From a virus (lineage: Duplodnaviria > Caudoviricetes): a stretch of 64,000 bases of DNA. Shown piece by piece: positions 3,420-56,931 of this stretch (within the stretch, counting starts at the first letter, position 1; each line of letters opens with the position of its first letter). Location: positions 160,001 through 224,000 of the IMG/VR virus record IMGVR_UViG_3300028886_000028. One strand, written 5' to 3'. A program made the translations under genes and the position numbers. The notes under the pieces were generated by a model, which was not told where the DNA came from, did no database searches, and saw only the letters and a program-made list of their open reading frames with translations.

Positions 3420-3431
3420 AAAAACGATATT

Positions 3432-4841: not shown

Positions 4842-5011
4842 TAAATTAATATTACACTCACATTCACATATTAAGCCTAAGTAATTATACCGTCGTTGTT
4901 ACTGCAACGATGGTTCTTTATTTATAAAGATAGTTATTTATTTGTTTATTTCAACAATTAATGCTATTTTTACATTAAAAAGATATTTATTAATATAAAA
5001 TTTAGTGAAGT

Positions 5012-5191: not shown

Positions 5192-5207
5192 TAAATTAGA
5201 ATCATAT

Positions 5208-5843
5208 ATGATAAATAAAATAACAGATAAAGGCTTTAAATTTTCAAGTATTGTAAATAATGTTTTGAAAGAGTCTTTATCCAGATTGGCGTATCATTTC
5301 ACGTCTTTAAAGAAATTTTATCAAATGGTAGATTCTGATTCAATTATATTTTCCACAGCTCATGGCACTGATGAGTTAATAAATGCTGATTATGGTAGGG
5401 GTGCTCCTTATTATTTGTCAACAACAAGAGTTCGTGATGGAAGATTTGGGTATTCTAGTGGATTAAATACAAGAATAGAATTGAATTCTGATTTCTTCAA
5501 TAGTAGGTTTCATTCAGGGCCCGTTAATTTCTTTGTGCCTGACGAAAGGGAAAGAAATTACCACAGTAAGCAAAATGTAGGAAAAGCAGAAAACGAAGAT
5601 AGAATTTTTTCAAATGTAAAGGTTTTAGAAGGTTTATCTAAATGCATTAATAGGGTAGATATATATTTGAATATACCTAATGAGGAACTGCCTTTATTCA
5701 AGCAAAGATATTATGATATATATTTGATGCTTCGTGACATATATAATACAGGTATAGGTCTTAAAACCTTTATTTATAACGATGAAAAAGAATTTAATAG
5801 ACAAGGAAAAAATATAACAGAAATAATATTAAAAATGTTGTAA
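5208..5843 (+). CDS. Hypothetical protein, possibly ADP-ribosyltransferase-like fold
   Basis: The YHFT...YLSTTR...ENEDR pattern resembles ART catalytic strands; preceded by an LKE-type leader. Confidence 0.4.
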   Translation: MINKITDKGFKFSSIVNNVLKESLSRLAYHFTSLKKFYQMVDSDSIIFSTAHGTDELINADYGRGAPYYLSTTRVRDGRFGYSSGLNTRIELNSDFFNSRFHSGPVNFFVPDERERNYHSKQNVGKAENEDRIFSNVKVLEGLSKCINRVDIYLNIPNEELPLFKQRYYDIYLMLRDIYNTGIGLKTFIYNDEKEFNRQGKNITEIILKML

Positions 5844-5850
5844 AAATCAT

Positions 5851-7332
5851 ATGGGAAGTTATATAAAAATATTTAATACTCATGAAGAGTATCTTGAATG
5901 GGTAGAAACTTCATTGGTAGAGCCTAACATTTCATTTTGTAAAGATAAGCCTCGCCAAGTACATTATCATCCATTGTCTGGATGTACAGAAGGTGTTGTG
6001 TATAAAATTACAAGCACGCCATCTTACCCTTCTATAATTGAAAACGATGTGACATCATTTGATATTAGCTTTGATTATAGAAAGGCTGATATAGATGAAC
6101 ATTGCAGAGAAACAGATATTGTAAACAGCGCTGATACTGTAACAGTTAATTGTGGCGCAAATACAGGCTCAACAGATAGAGTTGTATCAGGAGTCGTAAC
6201 ATGGAATAGAAACGATATTGAATATAACGTTGTTCAAAAAGGAGTTTGTGTTGATTCCACTGTATATGAACTTGTAGGAAATCCATCTTATCCGGCAACT
6301 ATTCAATATGACGTAACATCATTTGATATTAATTTCAATTATAAGAAAACTGTAACAACAAGTGATTGTCAAAAAACTGTTACAAACAGTGCAGATACTG
6401 TAACTGTTAATTGCGGAGCGAATACAGGTTCATCAGATAGAACAGTGTCAGGTACTGTAACATGGAATGGCATAAACATTGAGTATAGTGTTACGCAGAA
6501 AAAAGGTTGTACTGTTTCAACTGTATATGAGCTTGTAGGAAATCCATCTTATCCAGCAACAATTGAATACGATACAACATCATTTGTTATTAACTTTAAT
6601 TACAAAAAAACTGATACAAATGAGTATTGCCAAGAAACTGTTACAAACAGTGCAGATACTGTAACTGTTAATTGTGGCGCGAATACAGGTTCGTCAGATA
6701 GAACAGTATCCGGTACCGTAACATGGAATGGAATTAATATTGAATATAACGTTACACAAAGTGGCTATTCTGACCCGTATGGAGGCTATGAGTATGTTGA
6801 CTTAGGTCTTCCTAGTGGATTAAAATGGGCTAAATATAATATTGGTGCTTCCAATGAAAGCGAAGTAGGAATGTATTTTTCATACGGAAATATAGTCGGG
6901 CATTATAATTGTGACGGGTATGATTTTTCATCCGCTAGTTACAGTACAACAAACGGTTATAGATTAAGCGGAAATATACCTCAAAATTCACAGTATGATG
7001 CGGCTATTGCTATTTGGGGTAATGGATGGAGAATGCCGACGCGAGACGAATTTCAAGAATTAATAAATAATACAACTTGTTCTTATGATTCAAATACATA
7101 TACATTCACTATAACAAGTAAAATAAATGGTAAATCAATTAAAATAAAAGCTTCAGGATATTGGGATAATACTTCTTGCCCTAGCCTTACGACAACATCA
7201 ATATATATCATGTCTTCCACATTATCAGGAAAATATGGAGTATCATTGAATGCCTCTTCTTATGGCGATTATAAAATGCACGTATATGGTAATAGATTTA
7301 CAGGCTTACCAATTCGTCCTGTACATAGTTAA
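5851..7332 (+). CDS. Anchor-peptide + 3 tandem ~87-aa beta modules + C-type lectin domain
   Basis: Divergent N-terminal peptide; three PSYP..I....TSF...DTVTVNCGANTG repeats; YVDLGLPSGLKWA...WRMPTRDE...PIRPV. Confidence 0.8.
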   Translation: MGSYIKIFNTHEEYLEWVETSLVEPNISFCKDKPRQVHYHPLSGCTEGVVYKITSTPSYPSIIENDVTSFDISFDYRKADIDEHCRETDIVNSADTVTVNCGANTGSTDRVVSGVVTWNRNDIEYNVVQKGVCVDSTVYELVGNPSYPATIQYDVTSFDINFNYKKTVTTSDCQKTVTNSADTVTVNCGANTGSSDRTVSGTVTWNGINIEYSVTQKKGCTVSTVYELVGNPSYPATIEYDTTSFVINFNYKKTDTNEYCQETVTNSADTVTVNCGANTGSSDRTVSGTVTWNGINIEYNVTQSGYSDPYGGYEYVDLGLPSGLKWAKYNIGASNESEVGMYFSYGNIVGHYNCDGYDFSSASYSTTNGYRLSGNIPQNSQYDAAIAIWGNGWRMPTRDEFQELINNTTCSYDSNTYTFTITSKINGKSIKIKASGYWDNTSCPSLTTTSIYIMSSTLSGKYGVSLNASSYGDYKMHVYGNRFTGLPIRPVHS

Positions 7333-7368
7333 TAAAAGAGCAATCTTTGTTGATTGCTCTTTTTCATT

Positions 7369-8385
7369 TTAAAATAGTTCATATTCTTGCATTTTTTTTG
7401 CTTGTCTCAAACACATTACAATTCCTTTATATCCATATTTTTCATATATTTCGCTTGGGTCTTTTCCTAAATCTGTATTGATTAATTTTATTTTGCCGTA
7501 TAGTCTTCCATGATTTAATTCTTTGTATATATTTTTATTTTCATCCATTGTATCATTATCAAGCCATATATTTATGTTTGCGTTTGCATTTTTGATAATT
7601 TCCCAATATAATTTAAACTCTTTATTAATTGCTTTTCCCAATAAAGGAACTGAATTTGGAACTACTATATGGTCGAATGGGCCTTCTACTATCGTAATAT
7701 CTGCATCCCATTGAAGTTTATCTTCATTGAAAATTATATTTTTCCTTTCTGTTTTTGGATTGAAATATTTTACCATTCCTTTTCTATCAAGATAATCTCT
7801 TCCTGTCCAGTAATTTAAATCGCCATATAAATCATGTGATGGAATATATATTCTATATGATGAAATATATTCGTCTTTGTTGTATTCCGTGAAACCTATG
7901 TTAAATCTATCAATAATATCCCATCCAATTCCTCTATTGTTTAGATATTCAAGTGCTTTTTTTGGATAGTATTTATCTTTCCTAAACTGTTTAAAGGTTT
8001 TGGGCAGCATCAAATCTTCAATATCAATTGATTTTGTATCAATGTTAAATTCATCTTCCGAAAATTTTAATTTATATAGTTTACTTTCACGAAATGAACG
8101 TATTGCTTCTTTATAATCATTCAATAATTGTTCATTTCCATACAGTTTAATGAGCTTCAAAATAGAGCCACTCATTTGTTCCCCTTCATTAGAACACGAC
8201 CAACAGTGATAACGCTGAATCTGTAAATTAACTTCCAGATTAAATTTATGTGCTTCCTTTTCTCCTTTATTTTCTATACATTTTGGACATCCAAACTGTA
8301 GCTGCATGTTTTTACCATCAAATCCATTTTTTGCTTCTCCAAGAAATGATGCTAATATATTATACATTTTATCAAGTTCATCCAT
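7369..8385 (-). CDS. DNA primase (T4 gp61/DnaG-like)
   Basis: Zn finger CPKC...HCWSC, YL..RGI, TOPRIM EGPFD and LDND, KDP. Confidence 0.88.
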   Translation of the reverse strand: MDELDKMYNILASFLGEAKNGFDGKNMQLQFGCPKCIENKGEKEAHKFNLEVNLQIQRYHCWSCSNEGEQMSGSILKLIKLYGNEQLLNDYKEAIRSFRESKLYKLKFSEDEFNIDTKSIDIEDLMLPKTFKQFRKDKYYPKKALEYLNNRGIGWDIIDRFNIGFTEYNKDEYISSYRIYIPSHDLYGDLNYWTGRDYLDRKGMVKYFNPKTERKNIIFNEDKLQWDADITIVEGPFDHIVVPNSVPLLGKAINKEFKLYWEIIKNANANINIWLDNDTMDENKNIYKELNHGRLYGKIKLINTDLGKDPSEIYEKYGYKGIVMCLRQAKKMQEYELF

Positions 8386-14875: not shown

Positions 14876-14878
14876 GTA

Positions 14879-14897
14879 GGGAATTATATACCTGTTT
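14879..14897 (+). repeat. ~20-bp cassette-end site, forward orientation (GGGAATTATATACCTGTTT)
   Basis: Lies about 110 nt upstream of the anchor-peptide gene at 14991. Confidence 0.7.
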
Positions 14898-14990
14898 ACA
14901 ATAAACTATAGAATGCAGTCAGAAATGGCTGCATTTTTTGTTGCCTTAGATATTTATATAAAAAAATTAGATTTTAAAAAAGTAATAGCT

Positions 14991-16028
14991 ATGAAAAATT
15001 TTAAATTATTTAGTGCTCATACTGATTATGAGGCAGCTCAGAGCAGTTTAATACTACCAAATGTATCATTTTGTCTTGATACGCCAAATGAGGTACATTA
15101 TAATCCATTTGAGTGGTGTGAAGAAACTAGTATATATGAAGTAATAGGTAGTCCTTCATATCCATCTACAATAAATGGTGATATAACATCATTTGATATT
15201 GCAATTAGTTATAGAAGGACTGATACAAGTAGCTCTTGTACTGAAACTGTGACTGAAGGCACAGATACTGTTACCATTGAATGTGGTCAGAATCCAAGCA
15301 CAAGTGATACAAGGACTGTAAGTGGTACAGTTGATTATCATGGTAACGAGATTGAATATAGTGTTACTCAAAATAAGCTTAGTAATAATTCAGCAATTAC
15401 ATATTACGCAGAAAGTAAATTACTTGAGACAACTGATAGTAAATCAGATGGATTACGTACAAATGCGTTTAATGTATCAATTAAAAGCCATACATTCAGT
15501 AACGGTATAGGAACAATAACATTTAGTGGAACTTTAGGAACTATAGGTAGTTATGCTTTCCAAGGTTGTACTGGTCTTACAAGTATAGTTATACCAGATA
15601 GTGTAACAACTATTGGTTATGATGCTTTCAATAGATGTAGAAGCCTTACAAGTATAAATATACCTGATAGCGTTACAAGTATTGGTGACAATGCTTTCTA
15701 TAAATGTAGCGGCCTTACGAATATAGTTATACCTGATAGTGTTACAAGTATTGGTAGTAATGCTTTCGATAGTTGTTCTAATATGACAAGCTGTACAATA
15801 GGTAGTGGCGTAACAAGTATTAGTAATTATGCTTTCTATAATTGTAGTGGTCTTACAAGTATAACATGTAATGCAATGACAGCACCAACAGTAACATCAA
15901 ATTCATTTTACGGCGTCAAAAACGGTGGTACATTATATGTTCCTATAGGTAGCAGCGGTTATGACACTTGGATGGGAACAGGAAGTTATTACTTAGGAAG
16001 TATTAATTGGACTAAGGTAGAACAATAA
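14991..16028 (+). CDS. Anchor-peptide + one PSYP module + BspA LRR protein
   Basis: MKNFKLFSAHTDYEAAQSSLILPNVSFC...VHYNPF; module shared with 5851; about 5 LRRs; WTKVEQ cap. Confidence 0.88.
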   Translation: MKNFKLFSAHTDYEAAQSSLILPNVSFCLDTPNEVHYNPFEWCEETSIYEVIGSPSYPSTINGDITSFDIAISYRRTDTSSSCTETVTEGTDTVTIECGQNPSTSDTRTVSGTVDYHGNEIEYSVTQNKLSNNSAITYYAESKLLETTDSKSDGLRTNAFNVSIKSHTFSNGIGTITFSGTLGTIGSYAFQGCTGLTSIVIPDSVTTIGYDAFNRCRSLTSINIPDSVTSIGDNAFYKCSGLTNIVIPDSVTSIGSNAFDSCSNMTSCTIGSGVTSISNYAFYNCSGLTSITCNAMTAPTVTSNSFYGVKNGGTLYVPIGSSGYDTWMGTGSYYLGSINWTKVEQ

Positions 16029-16114
16029 TAAGCAATAAAAAGAAATAAATGTTTAACCCCTTTTTAAAAGGGGTTTTTTTGTGTTTTAAAGATATTTATA
16101 TAAAAATATTGTAT

Positions 16115-20623: not shown

Positions 20624-20635
20624 TAAACAATAAGT

Positions 20636-21373
20636 ATGAAATATTTAAAATTATTTAATGACCATGCTGAATATGAAGTTGCTAAGAATGGTTTAATACT
20701 ACCTAATGTATCAAATTGTGTTAATACACAAAATGAAGTGCATTATAATCCTTATGACCCATATGCAGGCCATGAGTATGTTGAGATTGGCGGCTTGAAA
20801 TGGGCAACAATGAACATTGGTGCTTCGCAGCCAAGTGATTATGGTTTGTATTTCCAATGGGGTGACACACAAGGCTACACTGCTGAACAAGTAGGTAGTG
20901 GTGAAGGACAGAAATACTTTGGTTGGGAAGACTATAAATACGGTAATGGTACAAGTTCGCCAGGTGCTACAGGAATGACCAAGTATAACTCTACTGATGG
21001 CTTAACAACACTTGAGGCTGTTGATGATGCTGCTGTTGCTAATTGGGGTGGCAGTTGGCGTATGCCAACAACTGATGAATTCCAAGCTCTTGGTGCTGCC
21101 GTAAACACTGCATGGACTCAAGTTAACAACGTGTATGGTATGTTATGTACAGATAAGGAAGATAGTTCCAAGACATTATTCTTCCCTGCTGCTGGCAGCT
21201 GTCTCAATGGCAGTGTCAGATTCGTAGGCAATGACGGTGGCTATTGGTCTAGTTCTCTTGACACTGATGGTGGGCAGGACGCCTACGACTTGGACTTTTT
21301 CAGTAGCTATGCTGACTGGGGTAGCAGCGGCAGCCGCTGCTGCGGCTTCGCAGTTCGTCCTGTGGTTGGTTGA
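20636..21373 (+). CDS. Anchor-peptide + C-type lectin protein; probable DGR target
   Basis: Conserved N-terminal peptide; KWATMNIGA, YFQWG, WRMPT, FFPAAG, YWSSS, G.AVRPV; GC- and NNC-rich 3' region. Confidence 0.88.
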   Translation: MKYLKLFNDHAEYEVAKNGLILPNVSNCVNTQNEVHYNPYDPYAGHEYVEIGGLKWATMNIGASQPSDYGLYFQWGDTQGYTAEQVGSGEGQKYFGWEDYKYGNGTSSPGATGMTKYNSTDGLTTLEAVDDAAVANWGGSWRMPTTDEFQALGAAVNTAWTQVNNVYGMLCTDKEDSSKTLFFPAAGSCLNGSVRFVGNDGGYWSSSLDTDGGQDAYDLDFFSSYADWGSSGSRCCGFAVRPVVG

Positions 21374-21500
21374 GAATTCATCATCACCAATAAACCAAAA
21401 TAAACTTGATTGCCACAAGCGTCAGCCCAAGGCAATCAAGTTTTCTATTTATGCCACCTTGTTATGCATATACTAATGCCAACAGATATATAGTTTCCAA
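21350..21500 (+). repeat. Conserved 3' end + hairpin + cassette end, nearly identical to 30841-30990 (reverse strand)
   Basis: About 150 bp near-identity, including a 13-bp stem (AAACTTGATTGCC 21402-21414 / GGCAATCAAGTTT 21431-21443) and the end site at 21479-21498. Confidence 0.92.
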
Positions 21501-21591
21501 ACTTAAAGCGAACTTTTCATGTTAAATTCTTTATTTATTAGTATTTTTTTTTATTTTTTATAAAAATAATAATTCAGAAAGCAAAAAGTAA

Positions 21592-27896: not shown

Positions 27897-28301
27897 ATGA
27901 TATTAAGGTTAATAGAATCTGATTTGCATAAGCTAATATCTTCTACAGTTAAGAAAATATTAAAGGAGAATTCAGAAAATAATGTAATATTAAGTAAAAT
28001 AGTTGAAGGCTTATCAATCTCTGGTATTCCATCAAAAATAGGGATGAATCAGGTAGACATCCCTCTTGATTACAATGGTAATGTTATCGCATGCATAGAT
28101 TATGAAATAGAAGAAAAACAAGGAGATTATAATGTGTTTATAACGTCTATTGTAATAGATGACGATGGTAAAGAATTCGAAATTGAAGATAATGGCATGG
28201 TTACGAATGCATTAAAAAATTTAATTGAACCGTGGACAGAAGATGTTGGATATTATGAAGAAGATGACGACCAATCTGGATGGAATGAAAATTGGAAATA
28301 A
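27897..28301 (+). CDS. Putative internal head protein, acidic
   Basis: MILRLIESDLHKLISSTVKKILKE leader. Confidence 0.6.
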   Translation: MILRLIESDLHKLISSTVKKILKENSENNVILSKIVEGLSISGIPSKIGMNQVDIPLDYNGNVIACIDYEIEEKQGDYNVFITSIVIDDDGKEFEIEDNGMVTNALKNLIEPWTEDVGYYEEDDDQSGWNENWK

Positions 28302-29276: not shown

Positions 29277-29617
29277 CTTTTTTGAAATAAATAATATTTA
29301 TATTATGAGTCCTTGTTGGCATTGCCCTTATTTCAATAAAATGGGAAAAAGGTATTTTTGCTCATTGAAGGGTATCTATTTAACAGAAAATGGTGTAGAT
29401 TTTTGCTCTGGGCCGAGTTACAAATATAAAAAGAAACATAAAAATAGAAAAAAATGAAGAATATAACACGACAACAACAGCAACAAAGTTAAGTCGTATC
29501 AACCATATGGGAACGGTTGATACTGATATTGTATTAACCAATCCTATTTATATTATAATTATTTTTTACCTTAAGTTCCCATTAGTAACAATACTGATGG
29601 GATTTTTTGTTTTATAA

Positions 29618-29689
29618 TGGAGAGTGGTATAACGGCCATTACACGAGATTTTGGTCCTCGGAATCCGGGTTCGATTCCCGGCTCTCCAA
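29618..29689 (+). tRNA. tRNA-Gln(TTG)
   Basis: TGGAGAG/CTCTCCA acceptor, anticodon loop TT-TTG-GT, CCGGG-TTCGATT-CCCGG T arm. Confidence 0.88.
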
Positions 29690-29696
29690 CAAAAAA

Positions 29697-29783
29697 TGGG
29701 AGTTGGCCGAGTGGTTTAAGGCGTGTGCCTCTGGAACACATGTAGACATAAATCTACCGTAGGTTCGAATCCTACATTCCCAA
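29697..29783 (+). tRNA. tRNA with CTG (Gln) anticodon and long class-II variable arm
   Basis: TGGGAGT/ATTCCCA acceptor; TGTGC-CTCTGGA-ACACA anticodon arm; GTAGA-CATAAA-TCTAC variable arm; GTAGG-TTCGAAT-CCTAC T arm. Confidence 0.8.
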
Positions 29784-29853
29784 CTTTGAAAAAATGTTTT
29801 TTAACGTTAGTATATATTTATTCAAAATAAGAAATTAATTTTGAATAAAGAAA

Positions 29854-30045
29854 ATGGAATATTTTGTAGATACAGAAAGAATTAGTTTGGATTATTCATA
29901 TGATAGAATATTTAAAGAAATACCAAAATATAGATTAACATTATATGATAAATATGGGCATTTTGATGCTGACGTTTATTTAACAGATGAACAAATTGAA
30001 GATTTGCTCACGGGACTTGAAAAAATAAAAAATAACATTAAATGA
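29854..30045 (+). CDS. Hypothetical protein
   Basis: ORF track. Confidence 0.55.
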   Translation: MEYFVDTERISLDYSYDRIFKEIPKYRLTLYDKYGHFDADVYLTDEQIEDLLTGLEKIKNNIK

Positions 30046-30182
30046 TATGGGTACATTATTTAATTTTGCAATGCATGTTATTTTATGGCCTATTGTTTTG
30101 TTTCTGGTCTTTACAGCGACTACGAATATTGATTTAATTTTTTATGCTATAAAGAAAGTATTAATTAAAATAAAAGAATATT

Positions 30183-30392
30183 ATGAATTTATTAGAAAAC
30201 GTATTTGTAAAAAAAGCAATAAAGTCGATGATGACGGCGGAGCAATTCGAGACTATGCAGAATTTTATGACAGCAGTTCAGTCTGGGAAGATTGACCAAA
30301 ACAAACTTAAAAATGTTGGTGAAAAATTATCTAAAATATCGCCGGAAGAAGTGAATAATCTTTTGGACATAATAGACAAAAACTTGAAGTAG
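30183..30392 (+). CDS. Hypothetical protein
   Basis: ORF track; overlaps the 30047..30295 ORF. Confidence 0.5.
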   Translation: MNLLENVFVKKAIKSMMTAEQFETMQNFMTAVQSGKIDQNKLKNVGEKLSKISPEEVNNLLDIIDKNLK

Positions 30393-30438
30393 TAATTCAA
30401 CTACTCAAGTTTTTCTTTTTTTATAAAAACATTTTTAA

Positions 30439-30825
30439 ATGGTACATGTTATTAATATAAAAACTGATGATAAGACAATGGATGAAGGATATTTCTACGT
30501 AGGCCGTAGCAAATATAATAATTCTCCACTTGGAAACCCCTTTACATGTAAAGGAAAGCGAACAAGTTTAGCAAAACTATCATTTCCAACAGTTGAACAA
30601 GCAATAGAAGCCTACGAAATGTATTTTGATGCCATGTACGGTAAAGATGAAGATTTCACGAAGGCTTTTGATGAAATATACGAATATTATAAAACTGGAA
30701 AAGATGTATATCTTGGATGTTTTTGTGCACCGGGTAAATGCCATGCATCTATCATTGCTAAAAAATTGCAACAGAAATTAATAAAGGAAAAAATGGAAGA
30801 AAGAAAAAAGGAGAAGCTCAAATAA
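30439..30825 (+). CDS. DUF4326-like protein
   Basis: YVGR...SPLGNPF...LGCFCAP..CHA. Confidence 0.8.
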   Translation: MVHVINIKTDDKTMDEGYFYVGRSKYNNSPLGNPFTCKGKRTSLAKLSFPTVEQAIEAYEMYFDAMYGKDEDFTKAFDEIYEYYKTGKDVYLGCFCAPGKCHASIIAKKLQQKLIKEKMEERKKEKLK

Positions 30826-30842
30826 GCCTCTCCTTTTTATTT

Positions 30843-31741
30843 GGGAACTATATATCTGTTGGCATTAGTATATGCATAATAAGGTAGTATAAATAGAAAA
30901 CTTGATTGCCTTGGGCTGACGCTTGTGGCAATCAAGTTTATTTTGGTTTATTGGCGATGATGAATTCTCAACCTACCACAGGGCGAACCGAGAAGCCGTA
31001 GTAACGGTAGTCCTTGAACACGCCCTTGGCACCATTGAGAAAGAAGAAGCTGTAAGCGTTACCACTACCATTAGGAGAAGAACCCCAATAGTAACCGCTA
31101 TTGCCTACATCGCTCTGGCTACCATTGTACCAGCGGCCAACAGCAGGAAGAAATAAAACAGCCCCATTGGTGGCTGTGAATGTACCACCATTTATTCCAC
31201 TACCTTTGTAGTTTGTTACCCACTGATAAGTAGTATTAGCTGTCAATTCTTGCATTTGTACACTCGTTGGCATATGCCAAGAGCCACCCCACACTTGCAC
31301 TGCTGTATCTACAGAAGAATCTAATGGGTATTCTGTTCCACTATAGTTGCTATCGCCACTTGTTGCTGCATATTGAGCAGCGCCCTTACCGTATTGATAG
31401 TAATTACCATAATCCGTTTCTGATGAAGCACCCACGTTCATTGTAGCCCAAAGTGTACCACTTGGTAGACCAAGGTCAACATACTCATGGCCTGCATATG
31501 GGTCAACATAAGGATTATAATGCACTTCATTAGGCGTATCATTACATGTTGATACATTTGGTAGTATCAAATTACTCTGTGCTGATTCGTAATCAGTATG
31601 AGCATTAAATTTTTTTAAGTATTTCATAATTCTATTTTGTTTTTACTATAAATATCAGTTATATGTATAAATGAGCAATCCTTTGGTTGATTTTCTCATT
31701 ATTATAAACTAATAGATATTACCAATAGGTATATAATTCCG
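30843..31741. mobile_element. Putative non-autonomous gene cassette (IR-promoter-lectin gene-hairpin-IR)
   Basis: Imperfect terminal inverted repeats at 30843-30862 and 31722-31741; flanks TTTTATTT / TTTTGTTT; no transposase inside. Confidence 0.6.
30968..31627 (-). CDS. Anchor-peptide + C-type lectin protein; probable DGR target
   Basis: MKYLKKFNAHTDYESAQSNLILPNVS...; YVDLGLPSGTLWATMNVGA; FLPA.G...YW.SS...GFSVRPV. Confidence 0.88.
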   Translation of the reverse strand: MKYLKKFNAHTDYESAQSNLILPNVSTCNDTPNEVHYNPYVDPYAGHEYVDLGLPSGTLWATMNVGASSETDYGNYYQYGKGAAQYAATSGDSNYSGTEYPLDSSVDTAVQVWGGSWHMPTSVQMQELTANTTYQWVTNYKGSGINGGTFTATNGAVLFLPAVGRWYNGSQSDVGNSGYYWGSSPNGSGNAYSFFFLNGAKGVFKDYRYYGFSVRPVVG

Positions 31742-32066
31742 TTTTGTTTTGCTTAAAGTAAAATGGATTATCTTTTAATGATTCTATAATATCCATTTTT
31801 TCATCACAGATGCTTTTAAAAGCCTCTGTATCGTTTTCAAACAACTCAAACCATTCTCCTATAATGTTGGATGAATTAAAGTGATTATGAAGCATCTTTT
31901 CAAGTTTGAAAGGATGGCTTGTTTCATAAAAGTCTTTTATATATAATTCATAAGAACTTCCAGTTTGAAGCTGTTTCAATCTTTTATTAATATCTTTCGA
32001 CCTAGTAGAACCTATTTTAAACCTACCAGGATTTTCTTTTTCACCTATCAAATATACATATCCCAT
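31719..32066 (-). CDS. GIY-YIG superfamily (T5orf172/MUG113-like) protein
   Basis: GYVYLI...FKIG.T...KRLKQLQTG...E..LH......GEWF. Confidence 0.85.
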   Translation of the reverse strand: MGYVYLIGEKENPGRFKIGSTRSKDINKRLKQLQTGSSYELYIKDFYETSHPFKLEKMLHNHFNSSNIIGEWFELFENDTEAFKSICDEKMDIIESLKDNPFYFKQNKTELYTYW

Positions 32067-32169
32067 ACATATAAAATATAATGTTTTTTATTTTTGTTTC
32101 AACGTTTATAAATAAAAAACGGAAAGCCAAATTTAGGAAAAAATGTTGATATTATCGGATAAGTTTGCA

Positions 32170-32200
32170 AAAGAGCACTAGAAATAGTGCTCTTTTTTTT
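32170..32200 (+). terminator. Intrinsic terminator-like hairpin (AAAGAGCACTA...TAGTGCTCTTTTT)
   Basis: Perfect stem plus T-run. Confidence 0.65.
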
Positions 32201-32283
32201 GGTTAATTATATTTATTATTAAATAACATTTAAGCAGGTCTTTACTTGCTTTTCTTTAATAATCTATTTAGATAAATAAAATT

Positions 32284-35200
32284 ATGGCAAAAGACAGAAA
32301 AAAGCTGCAACATATTCACAGCAGTATTGCTGATAAGCAGCCAACACCAGCCACACTTGAGGTTGGAGAAATAGCGGTTAATAATGCCGCAGGACAAGAG
32401 TTCCTTTCAGTTAAAAATTCTCGTGACAAAGTAGTTAGATTTTCTTCAGATGAACAAATTGTTACAATCATGGAGAAAAAAGAAGTTATGCCTTATAAAG
32501 GCTATGTAAGAGGTGCTGAAGGCCCTGCTTCCACAAGCGCAGACACATATGGCTCTTATGGTATTACAAATCAAGACCTTATTGAAAATAAATCTAATAT
32601 CATTGTTAAATTAAACCAAGTTGCTGCTGGTAATACAGCAAAACATGGCGAAGTCAATGGAGCAAGAGACGCATATGATTTGTTAGTAAATCCAACATCT
32701 GATGGAGGTTTGACTGATGGAGCCGGATTCTTTATTGATATGTCACGTTATGCAATGCAAGGTGCAAACCCATCATTTAGTTCAGTTACAACTAATTGCC
32801 ACGCAGTACTCAACGGAACAACCGAAGTAAAAGGCACTGATGGAGAATGTGGTAGCAAACTTGATATTGATGTAAATGAGATTGAAGCAAGTGCTAATAC
32901 TATTATTAATATTGCTGACACAAGCATCATCAATTCTACAGATTTATTTGAAATTTCAGAAAATATAAGTGGTGGTACTGTTAATATTAACACTACAAAT
33001 GTAAACGTTAGTGCTGATACTACTGATATTAAATCTTGTGATAAAGTAAAAACAAGCACTAATGATTTTGAAATTGTTGAGTGTGAAGATGGCGGCCATG
33101 TTTTAGTTGATGTTACTAACGTTGGAATATCCGCAAGTAGCACAAATATTGAGTCTTGTGATGGTATTAAAGCAGAAACAAATAAATTTGAAATTGTTGA
33201 ATGCGGCGATGGACAAATTATTGTAGATGTTACTAATGTTAATATTAGTGCAGATACAGAAGAAATTAAAGCTTGTGATAGTTTTAAACTTGGCACAAAC
33301 AATTTTGAGTTAAATGAATGCGAAAATGGTAGCGGTAATACAATTGTAAATACAACAAATGTAAGCATATCCGCAAACACTGCTAATATTAAGTCTTGTG
33401 GAGAAATTATAAATGAAACAGACAAGTTTGAAATAAAAGAATGCAATGATGGTGGACAAGTTGTTATAGATAGTACAAATGTTATCATTAGTGCAGCAAC
33501 AACAGATGTAAATTCTTGTGAAGCAGTAAATACGTTCACTAATAAGTTTAACGTAAATGAATGTGGTGAGAACGGAGAAGTTTCGTTTAACACAACTAAT
33601 ATGAATGTAAGTGCTGACACGACTGGCATTAAATCTTGTCAGGAAGTTAAAGCAGAAACAAATAGTTTTAAAGTAGTTCAATGTAACGAAGGTGGTGAAG
33701 TTGAATTAAACACTACAGATGTAAATATTAGTGCTGATACTACTGATATTAAATCTTGCCAATCTATAAATGCCAACACAGATAATTTTAACATCAATCA
33801 ATGTAATGCGGAAAGTGGCAATGTTATTATCAATACAACAAATGTATCTACTTCTGCAAAAATAGTTAGTGTAGATGCTTGCGATAACGTTGAAATTAAA
33901 TCTGACAATATTGAATTAACTCAATGTGGAGAAGATGGAATAGTTAAAATTGATTCTAGTAAAACTAATATTAAGTCTTGCGATGAAATTAAACTTGAAT
34001 CTATGAATATAATTTTGACTGATGGGGAATGCGGCGATGGCCAAATTACAATTTCAGTCGATGATTTGTGTTTAATTGGCGAATCAAAAGTTAACGTATA
34101 TGGTGACGAAACAAATGTAGGATTGGATTGCATTGATGAACAAATTGCAAGTAATACTAACATATACGGTAATACTACTTTAATCACAACAAATATCAAT
34201 AAAAGCGGTAGTACTAATGAGGGAGATATTAGTGTATATGCAGACGGTAATATTAATATTGAAGCAAGTGGCGCTACTAATTTAACTAGTGATGGTATTG
34301 TTGTACGTTCAGAAGAAGATGTTTGCGTAGAAGCAAATAATAACGCAACATTGTTTGGACAAGATAATACTAAAATAGGCGTTTCTTGTTATGACAATAC
34401 AGTATCTGAAAATACTACAATCAATGGAAATAATATAGCAATTAGTGGTACTGGAATAAATGTAGATGCTTTAAATAACACTAATATTAATTCTTGTAAC
34501 GAAATTAATGTTAATACTAATAATTTAAATATCAACGAATGCGATAATGGTGGTAATATTGCTATTAATACCACTAATGTAAAAGCATCAGCAGCTACAG
34601 TATCAGTTAAATCTTGTGATAAGATTTCTAATGAAACAAATGAATTTGAAATTGTTAGTTGTGGTAGCGCAGATAGTAAAGTTTCAATTATCACCGATAA
34701 TACAGTTATTTATTCTTGTTCTGGAATAAGCGCAAGCACAAATGATTTGTTTATTAAATCATGTAATGATGGTGATGGAAATGCTCGTGTAGAATTTAAT
34801 AATGTTAATATTGATTCTTGCGGCCATAACTACATCAACACTGATGATTTTAAAATTACAGAATGTACAGAAGGAAACGGTAGTGTAACCATTACTACAA
34901 CTAATACAGATATTAATTCTTGCAATGGTGTTAATATTAATACTGATGAATTAGTTGTTGCTAATTGTAGTGGTAATAGTAATGTTGTAGTTGGAACTGA
35001 TAACGTAAGCATTTCATCTGATACTACAAACATAAACTCTTGTGATGGTATTAATGCAAGCACAAATGAATTTGTTATTGCAAAATGTGATGACTCAAAT
35101 AGTGGTAGCGTTATCGTTAATACTAACAATGTAAGTATTTCGTCTAATACAACTGATATTAACTCTTGTGATAGAATAAGTTTAAAATCTGATGATATAG

Positions 35201-38977: not shown

Positions 38978-41900
38978 ATGGCTAATGGAATAGGTATTGC
39001 ATATTGTGGCGGCATAATGACTTGTAGCGGTTATTCAGAGCCAAAAGCCTCAAATCTACTATTAGATAACCCAAGGCTTTATGAAGAGCCAAATAGTGCC
39101 AGTACAATAATAAATAATACAGATGCAGATGCGTTTGTATATACTTACTGTGACAGAGACAAACCTAACTCTGGTTCATGCGTGAATGATAGCCCAACAT
39201 CAAAATTGTATGTCATAAAATCATGTTGTTCCCCCAAAATGCCTTGCACATATTATGACGATGTGGATGGAATTGAATGCCCAAAAATAATTAATGATAA
39301 TACAAATATTTGGGCAAAAGAAGTAGAAGCAAGATATGATATACCTTTTGCTCATGGAGATTATGAACTATATGAATATAGCGCTGAAAAACTAAAAAAT
39401 ATGTTGGGTGTAAACACAACAAAAGTAACTTATTTTTCAGGTGATACTAGTTATGATTTAGAACAGTTTAAAGAAAACTTATGTGATAAACGTTATAATG
39501 CTATTAAAAATTACCTAGTTAGTTTGGGGGCAATGGAATATAGGATAAGACGTGATGGAGGAATATTAGAAAACAACTCGCAAGCTTATAATTATTCTAC
39601 TCATGTTATTGCTAATGTTAGTTTTTTACCATTTACTGATAATTTCTCTGGTGGTTCTGAAGCTAATTTAGATACTATTGTGAGACAGCAGTATAATGAT
39701 TTTATTCATGTTACTCCAAACATTACACAATCTGAAGATAACGAAAACACATTTTCAGAATACATCAAAACAAAACGTTTGGCTGAAATAAACAATATTT
39801 TTGGTGATATTAGCAATATTGGATTTTCTGCTAACACTAGAGGTAGTCATGCGTATCCTAAAATTTCTTTTTATGCGAAGAAATCAATATTTTCAGAATA
39901 TGATGATATGACAGGCAATAACACTACCAGGATTACAAATTATGATGCTAATGAACCTTATCATTATTTTACAAATGGTGTTGTAAGTGCTGAATTTTCA
40001 TTTATAAATGACGAAAATTCAAAATGGTATAGCAGTGGAAGAAGTGAATCATATGCTGACGTACCAAGTGCAACAACAGTTGGTATGTTTAAAGATTGCC
40101 CAACATTGGTAACTTGTGATATTCCAGGACAAATGAGATACATTAGTCCACAAACATTTATGGAATGTGGCAAGTTGTCAAGTTATACAACAAATCCTGA
40201 TACTATTGATGTAATTGATGCTGAAGCGTTTAGTGCTAGTGGCATTAAAACTGGAATTATAGGTAGATACACTGTATTGAAGAATCGAGCGTTTAGTGGA
40301 GCAACACAAATGGACACTATCTATTGGCATAATTATATCCCACTTAACAACAGCTTTAGTGGTAATGTATTTGGATATAGTGGAGAACCTAGATGTAGAT
40401 TGGATAGCGGATATACATACTTCTGGGATGATGAAGATATAGACTGGGGAAGAACTGGATATACAATACCAAAAGAAGCATTCAAAGATTGTCATGCATT
40501 AAAACATAGTAAATTCGCTAAAGGAAGTGCTCATACAGAGACAATTACATTGACAGATACGTTATATATACCAAGCGGATTTACAACTATTGGTAAAAGT
40601 GCATTTGAAAACTGTAGTGGGTTAACTGACATATATCTTAATGGAGTTAAATTTGTTAAAGAAAAGGCATTTAATAATTGTAAAAACATGAATGTACACG
40701 ATACTGAGAATGTAATTTATGTTGGAACTGATGCATTTAATAGAGGTAATAATGATTCACGTGAAGTCACAGTTTATGGTGGTGAAAATGCTTGGAAAGA
40801 ACTCGTACAAATTGACAAAAATGCATTTTATGATAAAAACATAAAAAACGGTAATCCATATCCTTCTTCTGATGCTGAAAAAATATTATCTTTGCCAAAA
40901 GTTGTAAGTATTGGGGAAAACGCATTTAGTGGGGCAACAATAGATGGATATTTAAAAATAACCAATAATGTTAGTGCTAAAACAATTTATAACGCTGCTT
41001 TTAACAGTTGTACAATATCTGATAGCACAAGTGATGGTTGGGGATTGATTATAAGTGGAGATACAACAAGATTAAATAGATATTATGTTTTCAGCGGACT
41101 TCATACAGATAAAGGCGGTGTATATTTACGTAATGTTGATATGTCAGATAACTCCAATCCTTTTGCTAATTCTGTAATAAATGGTAATGTTGATATTAGT
41201 GCTTGTACGTTAAGCTTATATGCTTTTAATCGTGCGCATATGAGTGGTTTAACACTTTATCATGAAGGAAAAGAAGTCAACGATTTTGCGTTTGCGGGAG
41301 CAGAAATGAGTGGTAATTGCAATGTTACTGCAAAAACATTTCAAACTCAATCATTTTGGAAAGCTAATATAAGTGGAGATTGTTCAATCTCAGCAAATAC
41401 AATTGGAAAGCAGGCATTCTTTTCGGCATCAGCTAGCACTTTAAATTTATATCCGATAAGTGAAAGTAATTGTATTTCTATAAGTGAATATGCCTTTCAA
41501 AATTTTGTATTAACTTCTAGTAATAGTATTAATTTGAATAAAGTTGGGACGTTTGGAAATTATGCATTTTTAGAGTCTCAAATAAGTTCAGTTATTCTAC
41601 CTTTAGGGGTAGATATAAGTGATAGTTGTTTTGAACGTTCGTCATTATCAAGTGTATCGTTTAATAATTATACAAATTGTTCATCAAACGATGGAAAGTT
41701 TGAAATTAAAGATTATGCGTTTGAACACTGTAGTAATCTTACGTCTATAAATATTCCAAGCGGTGTAACAAAAATTGGTAGTTATAGCTTCGGTGAATGT
41801 ACTAGCCTCTCAAATGTAACTTTTAATAATAATTCACAACTAACAAGTATTAGTGATGGTGCTTTTGATAGCAATACTAGTTTATTAAGTATTACACTTC

Positions 41901-42346
41901 CAAATAGCGTTACAAGTATTGGCATTAACACTTTTAATGGTTGCACTAGCCTTACAAGTATAGATATACCTAGTAGCGTATCAAGTATTGGTATTGGCGC
42001 TTTTAATGGCTGCGCTAGCCTTACAAGTATTACTTTGGGTAATAATGTTACAAGTATAAATTATATTACATTCCAAAATTGTACTAGCCTTACAAGTATT
42101 ACTTTGGGTAATAATGTTTCAAGTATTCAAGTTGACGCTTTTAATGGTTGTACTAGTCTTGTAGAGATAAAGTGTTATTCACAAACAGCCCCAGAACTTG
42201 TTAACGAATCTAGTCAAAATATAAACATAGCAACTGGTGGTACAGTGCATGTCCCAAGTGGATGCGCGGCTCAATATAGATATAGGTGGTCTTATTTAAT
42301 AGATAGCACAGATTATGGTTGGAATGTGGAAGAAGATTTACAATAA
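38978..42346 (+). CDS. Large BspA-type LRR protein (putative receptor-binding/tail protein)
   Basis: Degenerate and canonical I...AF..C..L repeats; Cys-rich N-terminus. Confidence 0.8.
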   Translation: MANGIGIAYCGGIMTCSGYSEPKASNLLLDNPRLYEEPNSASTIINNTDADAFVYTYCDRDKPNSGSCVNDSPTSKLYVIKSCCSPKMPCTYYDDVDGIECPKIINDNTNIWAKEVEARYDIPFAHGDYELYEYSAEKLKNMLGVNTTKVTYFSGDTSYDLEQFKENLCDKRYNAIKNYLVSLGAMEYRIRRDGGILENNSQAYNYSTHVIANVSFLPFTDNFSGGSEANLDTIVRQQYNDFIHVTPNITQSEDNENTFSEYIKTKRLAEINNIFGDISNIGFSANTRGSHAYPKISFYAKKSIFSEYDDMTGNNTTRITNYDANEPYHYFTNGVVSAEFSFINDENSKWYSSGRSESYADVPSATTVGMFKDCPTLVTCDIPGQMRYISPQTFMECGKLSSYTTNPDTIDVIDAEAFSASGIKTGIIGRYTVLKNRAFSGATQMDTIYWHNYIPLNNSFSGNVFGYSGEPRCRLDSGYTYFWDDEDIDWGRTGYTIPKEAFKDCHALKHSKFAKGSAHTETITLTDTLYIPSGFTTIGKSAFENCSGLTDIYLNGVKFVKEKAFNNCKNMNVHDTENVIYVGTDAFNRGNNDSREVTVYGGENAWKELVQIDKNAFYDKNIKNGNPYPSSDAEKILSLPKVVSIGENAFSGATIDGYLKITNNVSAKTIYNAAFNSCTISDSTSDGWGLIISGDTTRLNRYYVFSGLHTDKGGVYLRNVDMSDNSNPFANSVINGNVDISACTLSLYAFNRAHMSGLTLYHEGKEVNDFAFAGAEMSGNCNVTAKTFQTQSFWKANISGDCSISANTIGKQAFFSASASTLNLYPISESNCISISEYAFQNFVLTSSNSINLNKVGTFGNYAFLESQISSVILPLGVDISDSCFERSSLSSVSFNNYTNCSSNDGKFEIKDYAFEHCSNLTSINIPSGVTKIGSYSFGECTSLSNVTFNNNSQLTSISDGAFDSNTSLLSITLPNSVTSIGINTFNGCTSLTSIDIPSSVSSIGIGAFNGCASLTSITLGNNVTSINYITFQNCTSLTSITLGNNVSSIQVDAFNGCTSLVEIKCYSQTAPELVNESSQNINIATGGTVHVPSGCAAQYRYRWSYLIDSTDYGWNVEEDLQ

Positions 42347-51968: not shown

Positions 51969-53438
51969 ATGGGAAGATTTATAAGTAATTTTCAAACAAC
52001 ATCTGAATTGATAGCCTTTTCTGGCACAACAATGTTTGGCAAACCTCATGTATCATTGACAAAAGATACGTCATCAGTACATTATTTCAAAAGTGGCGTT
52101 GTTCCGCCAACTCCGCAGTATAGGTTTGTTGATGATGAAGGGTACACTTGTGAAGGATATGATAAATACACAAAGAAAAAACAGCAAGTATCATATGATA
52201 ACGGTGCAACATGGACTGATACCGGAGTTGTTTCAGCCGGTACATTAATTGAAGCAAATTCAGAAGATTGTGGATATGTTCCGCCAACGCCTACTGAAAC
52301 AAGAGTTGTATGTAAGTATAATACTAGTTCTGAAGGAGAAATTTCATTATTCTATTATTTTGAAAGCGGAAGTGGCAGCGGAAGTGGTAGTGGTTCAGGC
52401 AGTGAGCCTCCATTCACATCTATGGAAGTAGATGGCGTTGAAGTAGAGGTGACTCCTACTTACACATTTGACACAACAGGCGAGCACATTGTTAAATTTA
52501 CGCTAGCAGACCCAACAAATATTGGTACGAGTGCTTTCACTCATTGTTATAAACTTACAAGTGTAACTATGCCAGATAGTGTGACAAATATTGGTGATTA
52601 TGCTTTCTTTTGGTGTGATGGCCTTACAAGTATAGACATTCCAAGCGGCGTTACAAGTATTGGTGATTATGCTTTCTATCAATGTTATGGCCTTACAAGT
52701 TGTACAATAGGTAGCGGTGTTACAAGTATTGGTGAGAATGCTTTCTATTATTGTACTGGTCTTACAAGTATAGTTATTCCTGATAACGTAACAACTATAA
52801 GTGAGAATGCTTTCTATGAATGTCATAGTCTTACAAGTTGTACAATAGGTAGTGGCGTTACAAGTATTGGTGGTGAAGCTTTCAGAGATTGTAGTGGCCT
52901 TACAAGTATAGTTATACCTGATAGTGTTATAAGTATAGGCAATAGTGCTTTCGGATGGTGTAGTAGCATTAGTAGTTGTACAATAGGTAGTGGCGTTACA
53001 AGTATTGGTTATGACGCTTTCATTGCTTGTAGCGGCCTTACAAGTATAAACATACCTGATAGTGTGACAATTATTGATAGTAACACTTTCAACGGTTGTA
53101 GAAGTGTTACAAGTTGTACAATAGGTAGTGGCGTTACAAATATTGGTACTTATGCTTTCGCTGATTGTAGAAGCCTTACAAGTATAACATCAAATGCTGT
53201 AACTGCACCTGAAATACAAATTAACACATTCCAAGGAATTGCAGAAAATGGTACATTATATGTTCCAGAAGATAGTACTAGTTATGATACCAATTGGTTG
53301 TCAAGTGAAGAATACTATTTAGGATATTACAGTTGGAATATAGAACATACACAGCCAAGTGGCTCAGGTAGCGGCTCAGGCAGTGGCTCAGATAGTGGTA
53401 CAGACAGTGGCTCAGGCAGTGGTTCTGGAAATGGTTAA
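51969..53438 (+). CDS. Variant anchor-peptide + GS linker + BspA LRR protein
   Basis: MGRFISNFQT...PHVSL...VHYF; GSGSGS linkers; about 10 LRRs. Confidence 0.88.
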   Translation: MGRFISNFQTTSELIAFSGTTMFGKPHVSLTKDTSSVHYFKSGVVPPTPQYRFVDDEGYTCEGYDKYTKKKQQVSYDNGATWTDTGVVSAGTLIEANSEDCGYVPPTPTETRVVCKYNTSSEGEISLFYYFESGSGSGSGSGSGSEPPFTSMEVDGVEVEVTPTYTFDTTGEHIVKFTLADPTNIGTSAFTHCYKLTSVTMPDSVTNIGDYAFFWCDGLTSIDIPSGVTSIGDYAFYQCYGLTSCTIGSGVTSIGENAFYYCTGLTSIVIPDNVTTISENAFYECHSLTSCTIGSGVTSIGGEAFRDCSGLTSIVIPDSVISIGNSAFGWCSSISSCTIGSGVTSIGYDAFIACSGLTSINIPDSVTIIDSNTFNGCRSVTSCTIGSGVTNIGTYAFADCRSLTSITSNAVTAPEIQINTFQGIAENGTLYVPEDSTSYDTNWLSSEEYYLGYYSWNIEHTQPSGSGSGSGSGSDSGTDSGSGSGSGNG

Positions 53439-55119: not shown

Positions 55120-56931
55120 ATGGGAAGATTTATAAGTAATTTCCAGACTACAGCAGAATTAATGGCTTTTTCTGGAACAACAGAATTTGGCAAGCCTCAT
55201 GTATCATTGACAAAAGATACATCGTTTGTATATTATTTTGCAAGTGGTGTTGTTCCACCAACTCCACAGTATAGGTTTGTGGATGACGGATACACTTGTA
55301 ATGGATTTGATAAATACACACAAATAAAGCAACAAGTGTCATATGATAATGGTGCAACATGGACTGATACGGGAATTGTTTCAGCTGGTACATTAATTGA
55401 AGCAAATTCAGAAGATTGTGGATATGTTCCGCCAACGCCTACTGAAACAAGAGTTGTATGTAAGTATAATACTAGTTCTTATGGACAAACTACTAAATTA
55501 TTCCATTTCGAAGGTGGAAGTGGTAGCGGTAGCGGAAGCGGTAGTGGTTCAGGTAGTGGAACCGGCGGTGATTTACCATTCAGTTCAATGGAAGTAGATG
55601 GCGTTGAAGTAGAGGTGGATTCTAATTACACATTCGACACAGCTGGTGAACACATAGTTAAATTTACATTAGTTGACCCAACAAATATTGGTACGAGTGC
55701 TTTCACTTATTGTTATAATCTTACAAGTGTAATTATACCAGATAGTGTGGCAAATATTGGTGATTATGCTTTCTATAGTTGCGACAGTATTACAAGTATA
55801 GTTATACCTGATAGTGTAACAAGTATTAGTAGTTATGCTTTCGCTGATTGTGGAAGCCTTAATAGCATATCCATACCTAATAGTGTAACAAGTATTGGTG
55901 AAAGTGCTTTCGCTGATTGCCATTGCCTTACAAGTGTAACAATTCCAAGTGGCGTTACAAGTATTGGTGATGTGGTTTTCAGCAATTGTAGAAGTCTTAC
56001 AAGTATAACTATACCAGATAGTGTTACAAGTATTGGCGATTATGCTTTCTATGATTGTAGAGGCCTTACAAGTATAGTTATACCTGATAGTGTAACAACG
56101 ATTGGTTATGAGGCTTTCTATGAATGTAATAGCCTTTCAAGTTGTACCATTGGAAGTGGTGTTACAAGTATTGGCAATGGTGCTTTCATGTTTTGTAGTG
56201 GACTTACAAGCATAGTTATACCTGATAGTGTTACAAGTATTGGCGATTATGTTTTCGAAGAATGTACAAGGCTTACAAGTTGTACCATAGGTAGCGGTGT
56301 AACAAGTATTGGTGAAAGCGCTTTTAAAATATGTACTAGTTTTACAAGTATAGATATACCTGATAGTGTTACAAGTATTGGTTATAATGCTTTCTATTAT
56401 TGTAGTGGCCTTACAAGTTGCACAATAGGTGATAGTGTTACAAGTATTGGTGATTATGCTTTCTATAAATGTAGTTGCCTTACAAGTATAGTTATACCTG
56501 ATAGTGTTACAAGTATTGGGGGACGTGCTTTCGCTGATTGTCACGGCCTTAGTAGTTGTACAATAGGTAGTGGGGTCACAAGTATTGGGGACGAAGGTTT
56601 CGGTAGGTGTACTAGCCTTACAAATATAGTTATACCTGATAGTGTAACAAGTATTGGTAATAGTGTTTTCAATTGTTGTAGTGGCCTTACAAGTTGTACA
56701 ATAGGTAGTGGCGTAACAAATATTGGCATTTACGTTTTTAGTGGCTGTTATAGTCTTAGTAGCATAGCATGCAATGCAATGACAGCACCTGCAATACAAA
56801 GTACCACATTCAATAACGTTAAAACTAATGGAACATTATACGTTCCGGCAAATAGTGTTGGCTATGATGTATGGATGCAGAGCGCCAATTATTATTTAGG
56901 ATTATATAATTGGGCAAAAGTTGAACAATAA
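55120..56931 (+). CDS. Variant anchor-peptide + GS linker + BspA LRR protein (paralogue of 51969)
   Basis: Near-identical N-terminal ~120 aa; about 15 LRRs; WAKVEQ cap. Confidence 0.9.
   Translation: MGRFISNFQTTAELMAFSGTTEFGKPHVSLTKDTSFVYYFASGVVPPTPQYRFVDDGYTCNGFDKYTQIKQQVSYDNGATWTDTGIVSAGTLIEANSEDCGYVPPTPTETRVVCKYNTSSYGQTTKLFHFEGGSGSGSGSGSGSGSGTGGDLPFSSMEVDGVEVEVDSNYTFDTAGEHIVKFTLVDPTNIGTSAFTYCYNLTSVIIPDSVANIGDYAFYSCDSITSIVIPDSVTSISSYAFADCGSLNSISIPNSVTSIGESAFADCHCLTSVTIPSGVTSIGDVVFSNCRSLTSITIPDSVTSIGDYAFYDCRGLTSIVIPDSVTTIGYEAFYECNSLSSCTIGSGVTSIGNGAFMFCSGLTSIVIPDSVTSIGDYVFEECTRLTSCTIGSGVTSIGESAFKICTSFTSIDIPDSVTSIGYNAFYYCSGLTSCTIGDSVTSIGDYAFYKCSCLTSIVIPDSVTSIGGRAFADCHGLSSCTIGSGVTSIGDEGFGRCTSLTNIVIPDSVTSIGNSVFNCCSGLTSCTIGSGVTNIGIYVFSGCYSLSSIACNAMTAPAIQSTTFNNVKTNGTLYVPANSVGYDVWMQSANYYLGLYNWAKVEQ

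Follow-up and report, generated by a model that had tools for sequence, protein, structure and literature searches.

Insertion sequences (ISs) of the IS1595 family include 'transporter' members that carry passenger genes (Siguier, Gagnevin & Chandler 2009, as cited in PMC12561309), and duplications of 8 AT-rich bp are known behaviour of this family, for example in ISApl4 (PMC12561309). Mobile insertion cassettes (MICs) consist of IS ends and passenger genes without a transposase, such as MIC231 of Bacillus cereus and Tn3-type cassettes in Xanthomonas (PMC4337579). MITEs (miniature inverted-repeat transposable elements) are common to Prevotella genomes and Prevotella phages, and IS elements are regarded as rare and selected against in phages (Nadal-Molero et al. 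2024, PMC11602168); that study makes no use of the terms 'cargo', 'passenger' or 'IS1595'. Here we describe a gene-carrying cassette of 899 bp in a 64,000-nucleotide stretch of rumen phage DNA, the window (positions 160001-224000 of the 401,138-bp virus record IMGVR_UViG_3300028886_000028, 31% GC). All coordinates refer to the window unless they are given as genome positions.

The cassette is very probably a transposase-less derivative of the IS1595 family, that is, a mobile insertion cassette with a passenger gene. It shares its terminal inverted repeats (TIRs) with elements that encode an IS1595 transposase, and an AT-rich 8-bp duplication flanks it. We file it as a derivative rather than as an IS because it has no transposase of its own. 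IS-type ends, a duplication, a passenger gene and no transposase are also what defines a mobile insertion cassette. We considered and rejected classification as a MITE, since the element is 899 bp long and carries a gene of 219 codons.

Cassette boundaries and the empty site

The cassette occupies 30843-31741 and ends in imperfect TIRs of 20-26 bp. The two end 20-mers, at 30843-30862 (plus strand) and 31722-31741 (minus-strand reading), are complementary at 16/20 positions, and in a repeat search of the window the arms reach 24 nt at 79%. The left TIR GGGAACTATATATCTGTTGGCATTAG (30843-30868, plus strand) lies on the 3' side of the cargo gene and has 2 mismatches to the 26-mer consensus of its family. 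The right TIR CGGAATTATATACCTATTGGTAATAT (31716-31741, minus strand) lies on the 5' side; it has 3 mismatches, and its outermost base is C, not G. Outside the TIRs follow the two copies of the target-site duplication, TTTTATTT on the left (30835-30842) and TTTTGTTT on the right (31742-31749), which agree at 7/8 positions, the right copy having one A-to-G change.

Along the minus strand, the order inside the cassette is TIR, small hairpin, GATATTTAT promoter-like box, anchor gene, terminator hairpin, TIR. The small hairpin (AATGAG..CTCATT, 31670-31700, minus strand) is degenerate and sits just inside the right TIR; by position and type of sequence it resembles the ATGAGCAGC..GCTGCTCAT hairpins at the equivalent position of elements in Prevotella and phages. 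The promoter-like motif GATATTTATAG (31646-31656, minus strand) precedes the ATG of the cargo gene by 19 nt. This gene (30968-31627, minus strand) is the only open reading frame (ORF) inside the cassette, and a transposase ORF is absent. It encodes 219 aa, a 40-aa 'anchor' N-terminus followed by a putative C-type-lectin-like or Lcl_C-like domain. Downstream of it, the repeat search finds a terminator-like hairpin with a perfect 13-bp stem and a 16-nt loop (30898-30939, minus strand). The original prediction, made from the sequence of the window, had described an adhesin gene with a late-type promoter and a 3' hairpin, enclosed by imperfect inverted repeats and a near-perfect 8-bp duplication. 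The repeats, the duplication and the enclosed gene, hairpin and promoter-like motif all hold up; 'adhesin' and 'late' are readings that we keep provisional.

An allele without the cassette exists. Contigs of four public sequencing runs were mapped onto window positions 29500-33000, and in two of the runs the site is empty: in record 11 of X3 (1138 nt) and record 18 of X5 (874 nt), the segment 30265-30839 is followed directly by 31747 onward. Both contigs omit 907 nt (with a 3-nt ambiguity), which equals 899 + 8, and their flanks differ from the window at 4/575 and 18/563 positions. The rebuilt empty junction reads ..CTCC TTTTTATTTT GC... Since its T-rich stretch measures 10 bases, where the filled allele has 9 + 9, the empty allele has a single TTTTATTT target, the single-copy empty site that the original prediction had proposed looking for. 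The two flanks have no 30-mer in common, which makes a k-mer assembly error at the junction unlikely.

The cassette is thus present or absent at its exact TIR boundaries. A third study contains the filled allele as well: records 23 and 30 of run X7 cover both junctions at ~95.5% identity. In the X3 and X5 phages, where the site is empty, identity is 97-99%. In the more distant relatives L008 and L009, too, the two neighbouring genes have no cassette between them; in L009 they lie 57 bp apart. Homology to the empty-site relatives restarts 0-3 nt outside the right TIR.

Of these two genes, the right neighbour is the target. It encodes a GIY-YIG/T5orf172 protein (31719-32066, minus strand; PF13455, PF10544) and takes its final codons and stop from the element, ending in ..KTELYTYW-stop within the right TIR. 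The C-terminus reads ..QNKKERLI-stop in the empty and ..QNKTELYTYW-stop in the filled allele, which confirms the earlier suggestion that the right repeat provides the last codons of this gene. Relatives end in ..NPFYFK-stop. The left neighbour, a DUF4326 gene (30439-30825, plus strand; PF14216), lies outside the element, is unchanged in the empty allele and has a terminator hairpin at 30805-30838.

Three further observations concern this site and its repeat. In the filled X7 allele, the interior 31522-31703 is replaced, which gives a different promoter and anchor segment and keeps both junctions; this suggests recombination inside the element. In relative G004, a GIY-YIG homologue with 66% identity is followed, 2 nt past its stop, by a TIR-family repeat (L011:6309-6340) that is the end of a different element, suggesting independent insertions into the same AT-rich spacer. 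The exact 20-mer occurs in only one other IMG/VR contig, the unrelated 8.7-kb phage contig L001. There a solo repeat (L001:4983-5002) encodes the C-terminus of a membrane protein, ..NRELYTCWQ-stop, which parallels the ..TELYTYW-stop tail of the GIY-YIG gene in the window.

Relatives in Prevotella, in other phages and in this genome

Elements with the same ends and a transposase are found in bacterial chromosomes. Among 185,579 species genomes the exact 20-mer occurs at 27 loci, ~20 of them in metagenome-assembled genomes (MAGs) of rumen Prevotella or Bacteroidales. At four loci (L069, L064, L072 and L073) an inverted pair of TIRs surrounds the gene for a protein of 333-370 aa. In a profile search, the transposase of the TIR-bounded elements matches PF12762 at 152-156 bits as well as the zinc ribbon PF12760. 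Both domains are also matched by the transposase of L082, an element in a 412.5-kb contig, and across L069, L064 and L082 the PF12762 scores range over 150-156 bits. The L069 transposase scores 210 bits against NF033547, for which the cut-off is 75. All four MAG elements are flanked by 8/8 duplications: AAAAATTA, AAAAAAAA (A8), TATAAATA and TAAAAAAA. The left end of L064 equals the phage 26-mer consensus at 26/26 positions, compared with 2 and 3 mismatches for the window ends.

The location of L069 is chromosomal, between a serine dehydratase and an Exo_endo_phos gene, and its flanks have 53% GC against 39% in the element. Its cargo is a gene that combines the anchor with LRR_5; that of L072 and L073 is an 'LTESDL-leader' gene. 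The cargo genes of all three have a ATATTTAT box upstream. In a sample of 301 Prevotella genomes the repeat is found at one mismatch or less in 14, against 3 for a control pattern. Prevotella MAGs also contain MITE-sized relatives of 193-306 bp.

Phages carry the same transposase. It occurs, at 58-76% identity, in 16 viral contigs, among them phages of 235, 344, 354 and 412 kb, and in 7/16 of these contigs both TIRs are visible. Five of the phage elements (L082, L085, L088, L092 and L093) have 8/8 duplications (AAAATAAA, TTATTATC, TTTTAATT, ATAAAATG and AAAATTAA); the remaining two match at 7/8 (L080) and 4/8. Nine full-length relatives, chromosomal and phage together, hence have an 8/8 duplication. 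Elements with the same repeat, an IS1595 transposase and 8-bp duplications, as anticipated by the original prediction, are therefore present in Prevotella MAGs and in jumbo-phage contigs.

Anchor genes are the cargo of the phage elements L082, L084 and L085. At the cargo end of L082 the order is TIR, hairpin, GATATTTAT, ~35 nt and ATG, the same as in the window cassette. The layout of the cassette is that of a full-length relative from which the transposase gene is deleted. In the relatives G003 and G005 there is no copy of the 20-mer at two mismatches or less; G005 has a diverged family member next to a transposase.

In the 401-kb genome itself, the 26-mer consensus GGGAAYTATATAYCTGTTGGYAATAA has exactly 8 copies at three mismatches or less; the best match after these already has 6. 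The reversed genome, used as a control, contains no match at five mismatches or less, and 0.00-0.01 matches per window are expected by chance for the 20-mer at three mismatches or less. Hence the TIR pair is not a product of chance. When the copies are aligned, the inner flanks are partly alike and the outer flanks are unrelated. In every copy the GGG end points outward. The copies lie either on the upstream side of an anchor gene, where hairpin and promoter box come next, or downstream, past the terminator of the gene. All clear copies mark the boundaries of anchor insertions or are solo ends, so the repeat does not show the occurrence independent of cassette boundaries that would speak against the prediction.

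Three other copies lie in the window. At 4816-4841 (minus strand, motif search) a one-ended copy follows a gene with anchor, Big_2 and lectin-like parts (3432-4703), in a region that is missing from relative G001. The copy at 14879-14904 (plus strand), 3 nt past the stop codon of the upstream gene, marks the 5' end of an anchor + LRR_5 gene (14991-16028); the insertion relative to G001 starts exactly here. The copy at 21473-21498 (minus strand) lies at the 3' end of a paralogous anchor + lectin-like gene (20636-21373), which has the same terminator hairpin as the cargo gene (21396-21437). Here 175 nt (21334-21508) are 91% identical to the left end of the cassette, and the homology ceases ~10 nt past the outer edge of the TIR.

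A second complete cassette, at genome positions 325565-327557, consists of a TIR pair around an anchor gene of 578 aa. No cross-matches were found among the flanks of the eight TIR ends. At 12.7 kb beyond the window end (genome 236702-237361, 660 bp) there is a sister cassette, whose repeat, GGCAATAACATATAAGTTGGCCCA, is related. It also lacks a transposase, and the 8-bp duplication around it, ATTATTTA, is perfect. It carries a 170-aa LTENDLH-leader gene that begins MNKKLIRLTENDLH; this leader family is shared with the cargo of the Prevotella elements L072 and L073 and with the window ORF 27897-28301.

The phage genome has no match to the IS1595 DDE domain PF12762 at E<=0.1. Profile searches of it also found no rve, Y1_Tnp or TnpB zinc ribbon, no Resolvase (PF00239) or Phage_integrase (PF00589) and no reverse transcriptase (PF00078). 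With the family transposase as query, tblastn finds only short relics of the C-terminal tail, at genome ~358340 (~358272-358394) and ~124394, both on the minus strand. Their frames, ..SESERF(E/A)(D/H)MF(N/D)KSIGL.., resemble the tail of an IS1595 transposase, and one of them lies just inside a sister-type repeat. The relics are probably leftovers of internally deleted elements.

Cargo gene and anchor family

The 40-aa anchor is common to ~13 genes of the genome, whose C-termini vary: they contain LRR_5, Big_2 with a lectin-like domain, or a lectin-like domain alone. The closest relative, G001 (317 kb, ~75% identity, collinear), has no anchor-family genes at all, and hence all anchor genes are accessory. 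Relative to G001, the anchor regions 3403-7390, 14876-16054 and 20627-21528 are insertions, each between a stop codon and the terminator hairpin of that gene.

The cargo protein belongs to a family of 4492 proteins (E<=1e-5). Lcl_C (PF07603) matches it below threshold (E=0.012, 16 bits against a curated cut-off of 35) and matches the paralogue with E=5.6e-6 and 27 bits. The AlphaFold2 model of the cargo has a pLDDT of 76. Foldseek finds no match to this model in the PDB below E 0.2. With VIA-align, residues 46-219 align almost exclusively with C-type-lectin-like folds, at Z 4.6-5.3, where the tool regards Z <8 as weak; the matches include the Lcl C-terminal domain, InvE, Bd2740 and variable proteins of diversity-generating retroelements (DGRs), with 8q4e, 5n40 and 8oks at Z 5.1-5.3. 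The label 'lectin-like binding protein' is reasonable given such matches, and the cargo is probably a virion-attached protein of this kind. 'Adhesin' may be the right word for it.

Residues 1-41 (window 31505-31627), when modelled, align with the trimerisation domains of collagen XV/XVIII at Z 4.6-4.7, with a root-mean-square deviation of 1.9-2.4 across 38-40 residues, which hints weakly at a trimerising or docking module. Among 29 homologues, the variable columns are concentrated in the last ~55 residues (window 30968-31150), a pattern like that of DGR variable regions. We rejected the cargo as a DGR target gene: the genome has no reverse transcriptase, and the 3' coding end has no template-like direct repeat. 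A leucine-rich repeat (LRR) unit of BspA type, 69 nt (23 aa) long, is present in more than 40 copies across at least six genes (regions 93-806, 15468-15905, 41843-42211, 52446-53228, 55612-56700 and 57374-57932).

The ATATTTAT box behaves like a promoter: for 66/198 of its copies in the genome an ORF starts 10-60 nt downstream, compared with 1/166 in the reversed-genome control. It may be a late promoter.

Mechanism, rival explanations and known systems

How did the cassette arrive? The evidence indicates that DDE-type transposition inserted it into the AT-rich spacer where the DUF4326 and GIY-YIG genes overlap with their 3' ends. The event duplicated the 8 bp TTTTATTT and gave the GIY-YIG gene new last codons. 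A transposase of the host or of a co-infecting phage would move, or would have moved, the cassette in trans. The small hairpin inside the TIR may terminate the upstream gene in place of that gene's own, displaced terminator; the insertions at 14879 and near 21498 likewise separate a stop codon from its terminator. With a mutated outer base and a 16/20 match between its ends, this copy may have become immobile.

Several facts weigh against an origin by transposition, or limit its reach. Compared with the family consensus, the first 20 bases of the right TIR contain 3 mismatches, the outermost base among them; the arms are 4/20 apart and the duplication contains a mismatch. The phage itself encodes no transposase, so that movement in trans has to be inferred. 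No duplication surrounds the second complete cassette (its flanks match at 3/8). Complete cassettes hold only 2 of the ~13 anchor genes; 3 have a TIR at one end only, ~8 have none, and one TIR copy is solo. Where other phages have close homologues of the cargo (L077-L079, 80% identical), these are without repeats, and hence most of the spread of this gene family is not due to this element. The empty allele comes solely from assembled contigs of one 2022 study (runs X3 and X5), and exact searches for the empty junction in two other collections, of metagenome contigs and of viral contigs, gave 0 matches each. Finally, the site is filled in X7, although X3 and X5 are closer to the window, which fits loss by precise excision or recombination as well as it fits recent gain. 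The original idea that adhesin genes are spread through the genome as cassettes mobilised in trans is supported, though not as a general account: transposition is one route for the anchor gene family, not the sole one.

Could the cassette be an ordinary 'moron', gained by illegitimate or homologous recombination or by GIY-YIG homing, with TIRs that are incidental? G001 is free of anchor genes, several anchor insertions lack one or both TIRs, the 91% identity between the 3' 175 nt and the paralogue suggests recombination between copies, and a GIY-YIG gene lies next door. But the insertion runs exactly from TIR to TIR and comes with an 8-bp duplication. Homing does not produce terminal inverted repeats, and the GIY-YIG gene is the sole one in the genome and is not beside the other TIR copies. 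We thus regard gain as an ordinary moron as improbable.

Similarly small is the chance that the polymorphism arose by loss in X3 and X5, through slippage between the 8-bp copies or excision by a transposase, which would leave the identity of the element unaffected. The occupied site of X7 at ~95.5% identity and the empty sites at 97-99% favour such a loss. However, L008 and L009 do not have the cassette either, so the empty state is ancestral at the locus, and phage mosaicism can reconcile flank identity with site occupancy.

The inverted sites of the Mu G segment bracket genes of host-binding type, and here too inverted 26-bp sites surround host-binding-like genes. The TIRs might then be sites of a site-specific recombinase, with the cassette a Gin/Hin-type invertible segment or an integron-like cassette. 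This we consider highly improbable. The genome has no Resolvase or Phage_integrase domain, the contigs of the four runs contain no inversion joint at the TIRs, site-specific recombination leaves no 8-bp duplications, and inversion would alter nothing because gene and promoter are both inside the TIRs. Just as little credit goes to the 26-mer being a regulatory or protein-binding site, such as one for a transcription factor or one associated with terminators, that travels with duplicated gene flanks while the cassette is immobile: the motif does adjoin terminator hairpins and promoters, and some copies are solo or one-ended, but it ends transposase elements with perfect 8-bp duplications in chromosomes and phages, the empty site is precise and the outer flanks are unrelated, which already largely refutes the idea.

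As a transposase-less IS1595 derivative, the cassette belongs to a lineage that occupies 200-400-kb rumen phages and their Prevotella hosts and whose usual cargo resembles virion-attached binding proteins. The element links these uncultivated phages to Prevotella, and it accounts for conserved tails past terminators, for long-range inverted repeats and for the transposase-tail relics in the genome. It also provides a concrete and testable mechanism for the entry and movement of moron-like accessory genes, possibly host-range modules, in giant phages. A bolder reading, which we offer tentatively and consider rather doubtful, is that the lineage is a phage-adapted shuttle of virion-docking binding modules (anchor with lectin or LRR, and LTESDL-leader genes) among co-infecting rumen jumbo phages and into Prevotella chromosomes, with the chromosomal copies as reservoir. 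If so, chromosomal copies with phage-type promoter boxes would be available to infecting phages, and host-binding repertoires of phages would be diversified by transposons.

Passenger-carrying IS1595 elements, MICs and MITEs of Prevotella phages are already described (PMC12561309, PMC4337579, PMC11602168). The literature that we searched contains no IS1595 lineage resident in giant phages, none with virion-type genes as standard cargo, and no gene-carrying, transposase-less IS1595 derivatives that are polymorphic in natural phage populations.

The likeness to IS1595 elements lies in the relatives with the same TIRs, which encode DDE_Tnp_IS1595 and a zinc ribbon and have TIRs, 8-bp AT-rich duplications and passengers. 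In contrast, the copy in the window has no transposase, resides in a 401-kb phage and carries a cargo with a phage-type promoter box and a shared N-terminal module. Like MICs, the cassette has repeats specific to its family, a duplicated target and a passenger gene but no transposase, and its mobilisation in trans is presumed. Known MICs differ in IS family and setting: they are chromosomal or plasmid-borne and carry metabolic, resistance or effector genes. Like MITEs, the cassette belongs to the non-autonomous elements common to Prevotella and its phages, but MITEs are short and non-coding, whereas the cassette has 899 bp and a gene that looks expressed.

Two phage systems are also comparable. 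MPME1 and MPME2 of mycobacteriophages, which Sampson et al. are said to have described in 2009, are reportedly very small, with short inverted repeats, and polymorphic among related phages. We know of no transposase family identified for them. Polymorphism and short inverted repeats are common to MPMEs and the window element, and an autonomous partner is identified only for the latter. Phage morons (reportedly Juhala et al., 2000) and the PeSL cassettes of T4-type phages (reportedly Arbiol et al., 2010) are said to be promoter-gene-terminator units between core genes. They are not known to have TIRs or duplicated targets, and recombination is the presumed way in which they move. The window cassette is a self-contained promoter-gene-terminator unit of the same kind; the TIRs and the duplication set it apart from them.

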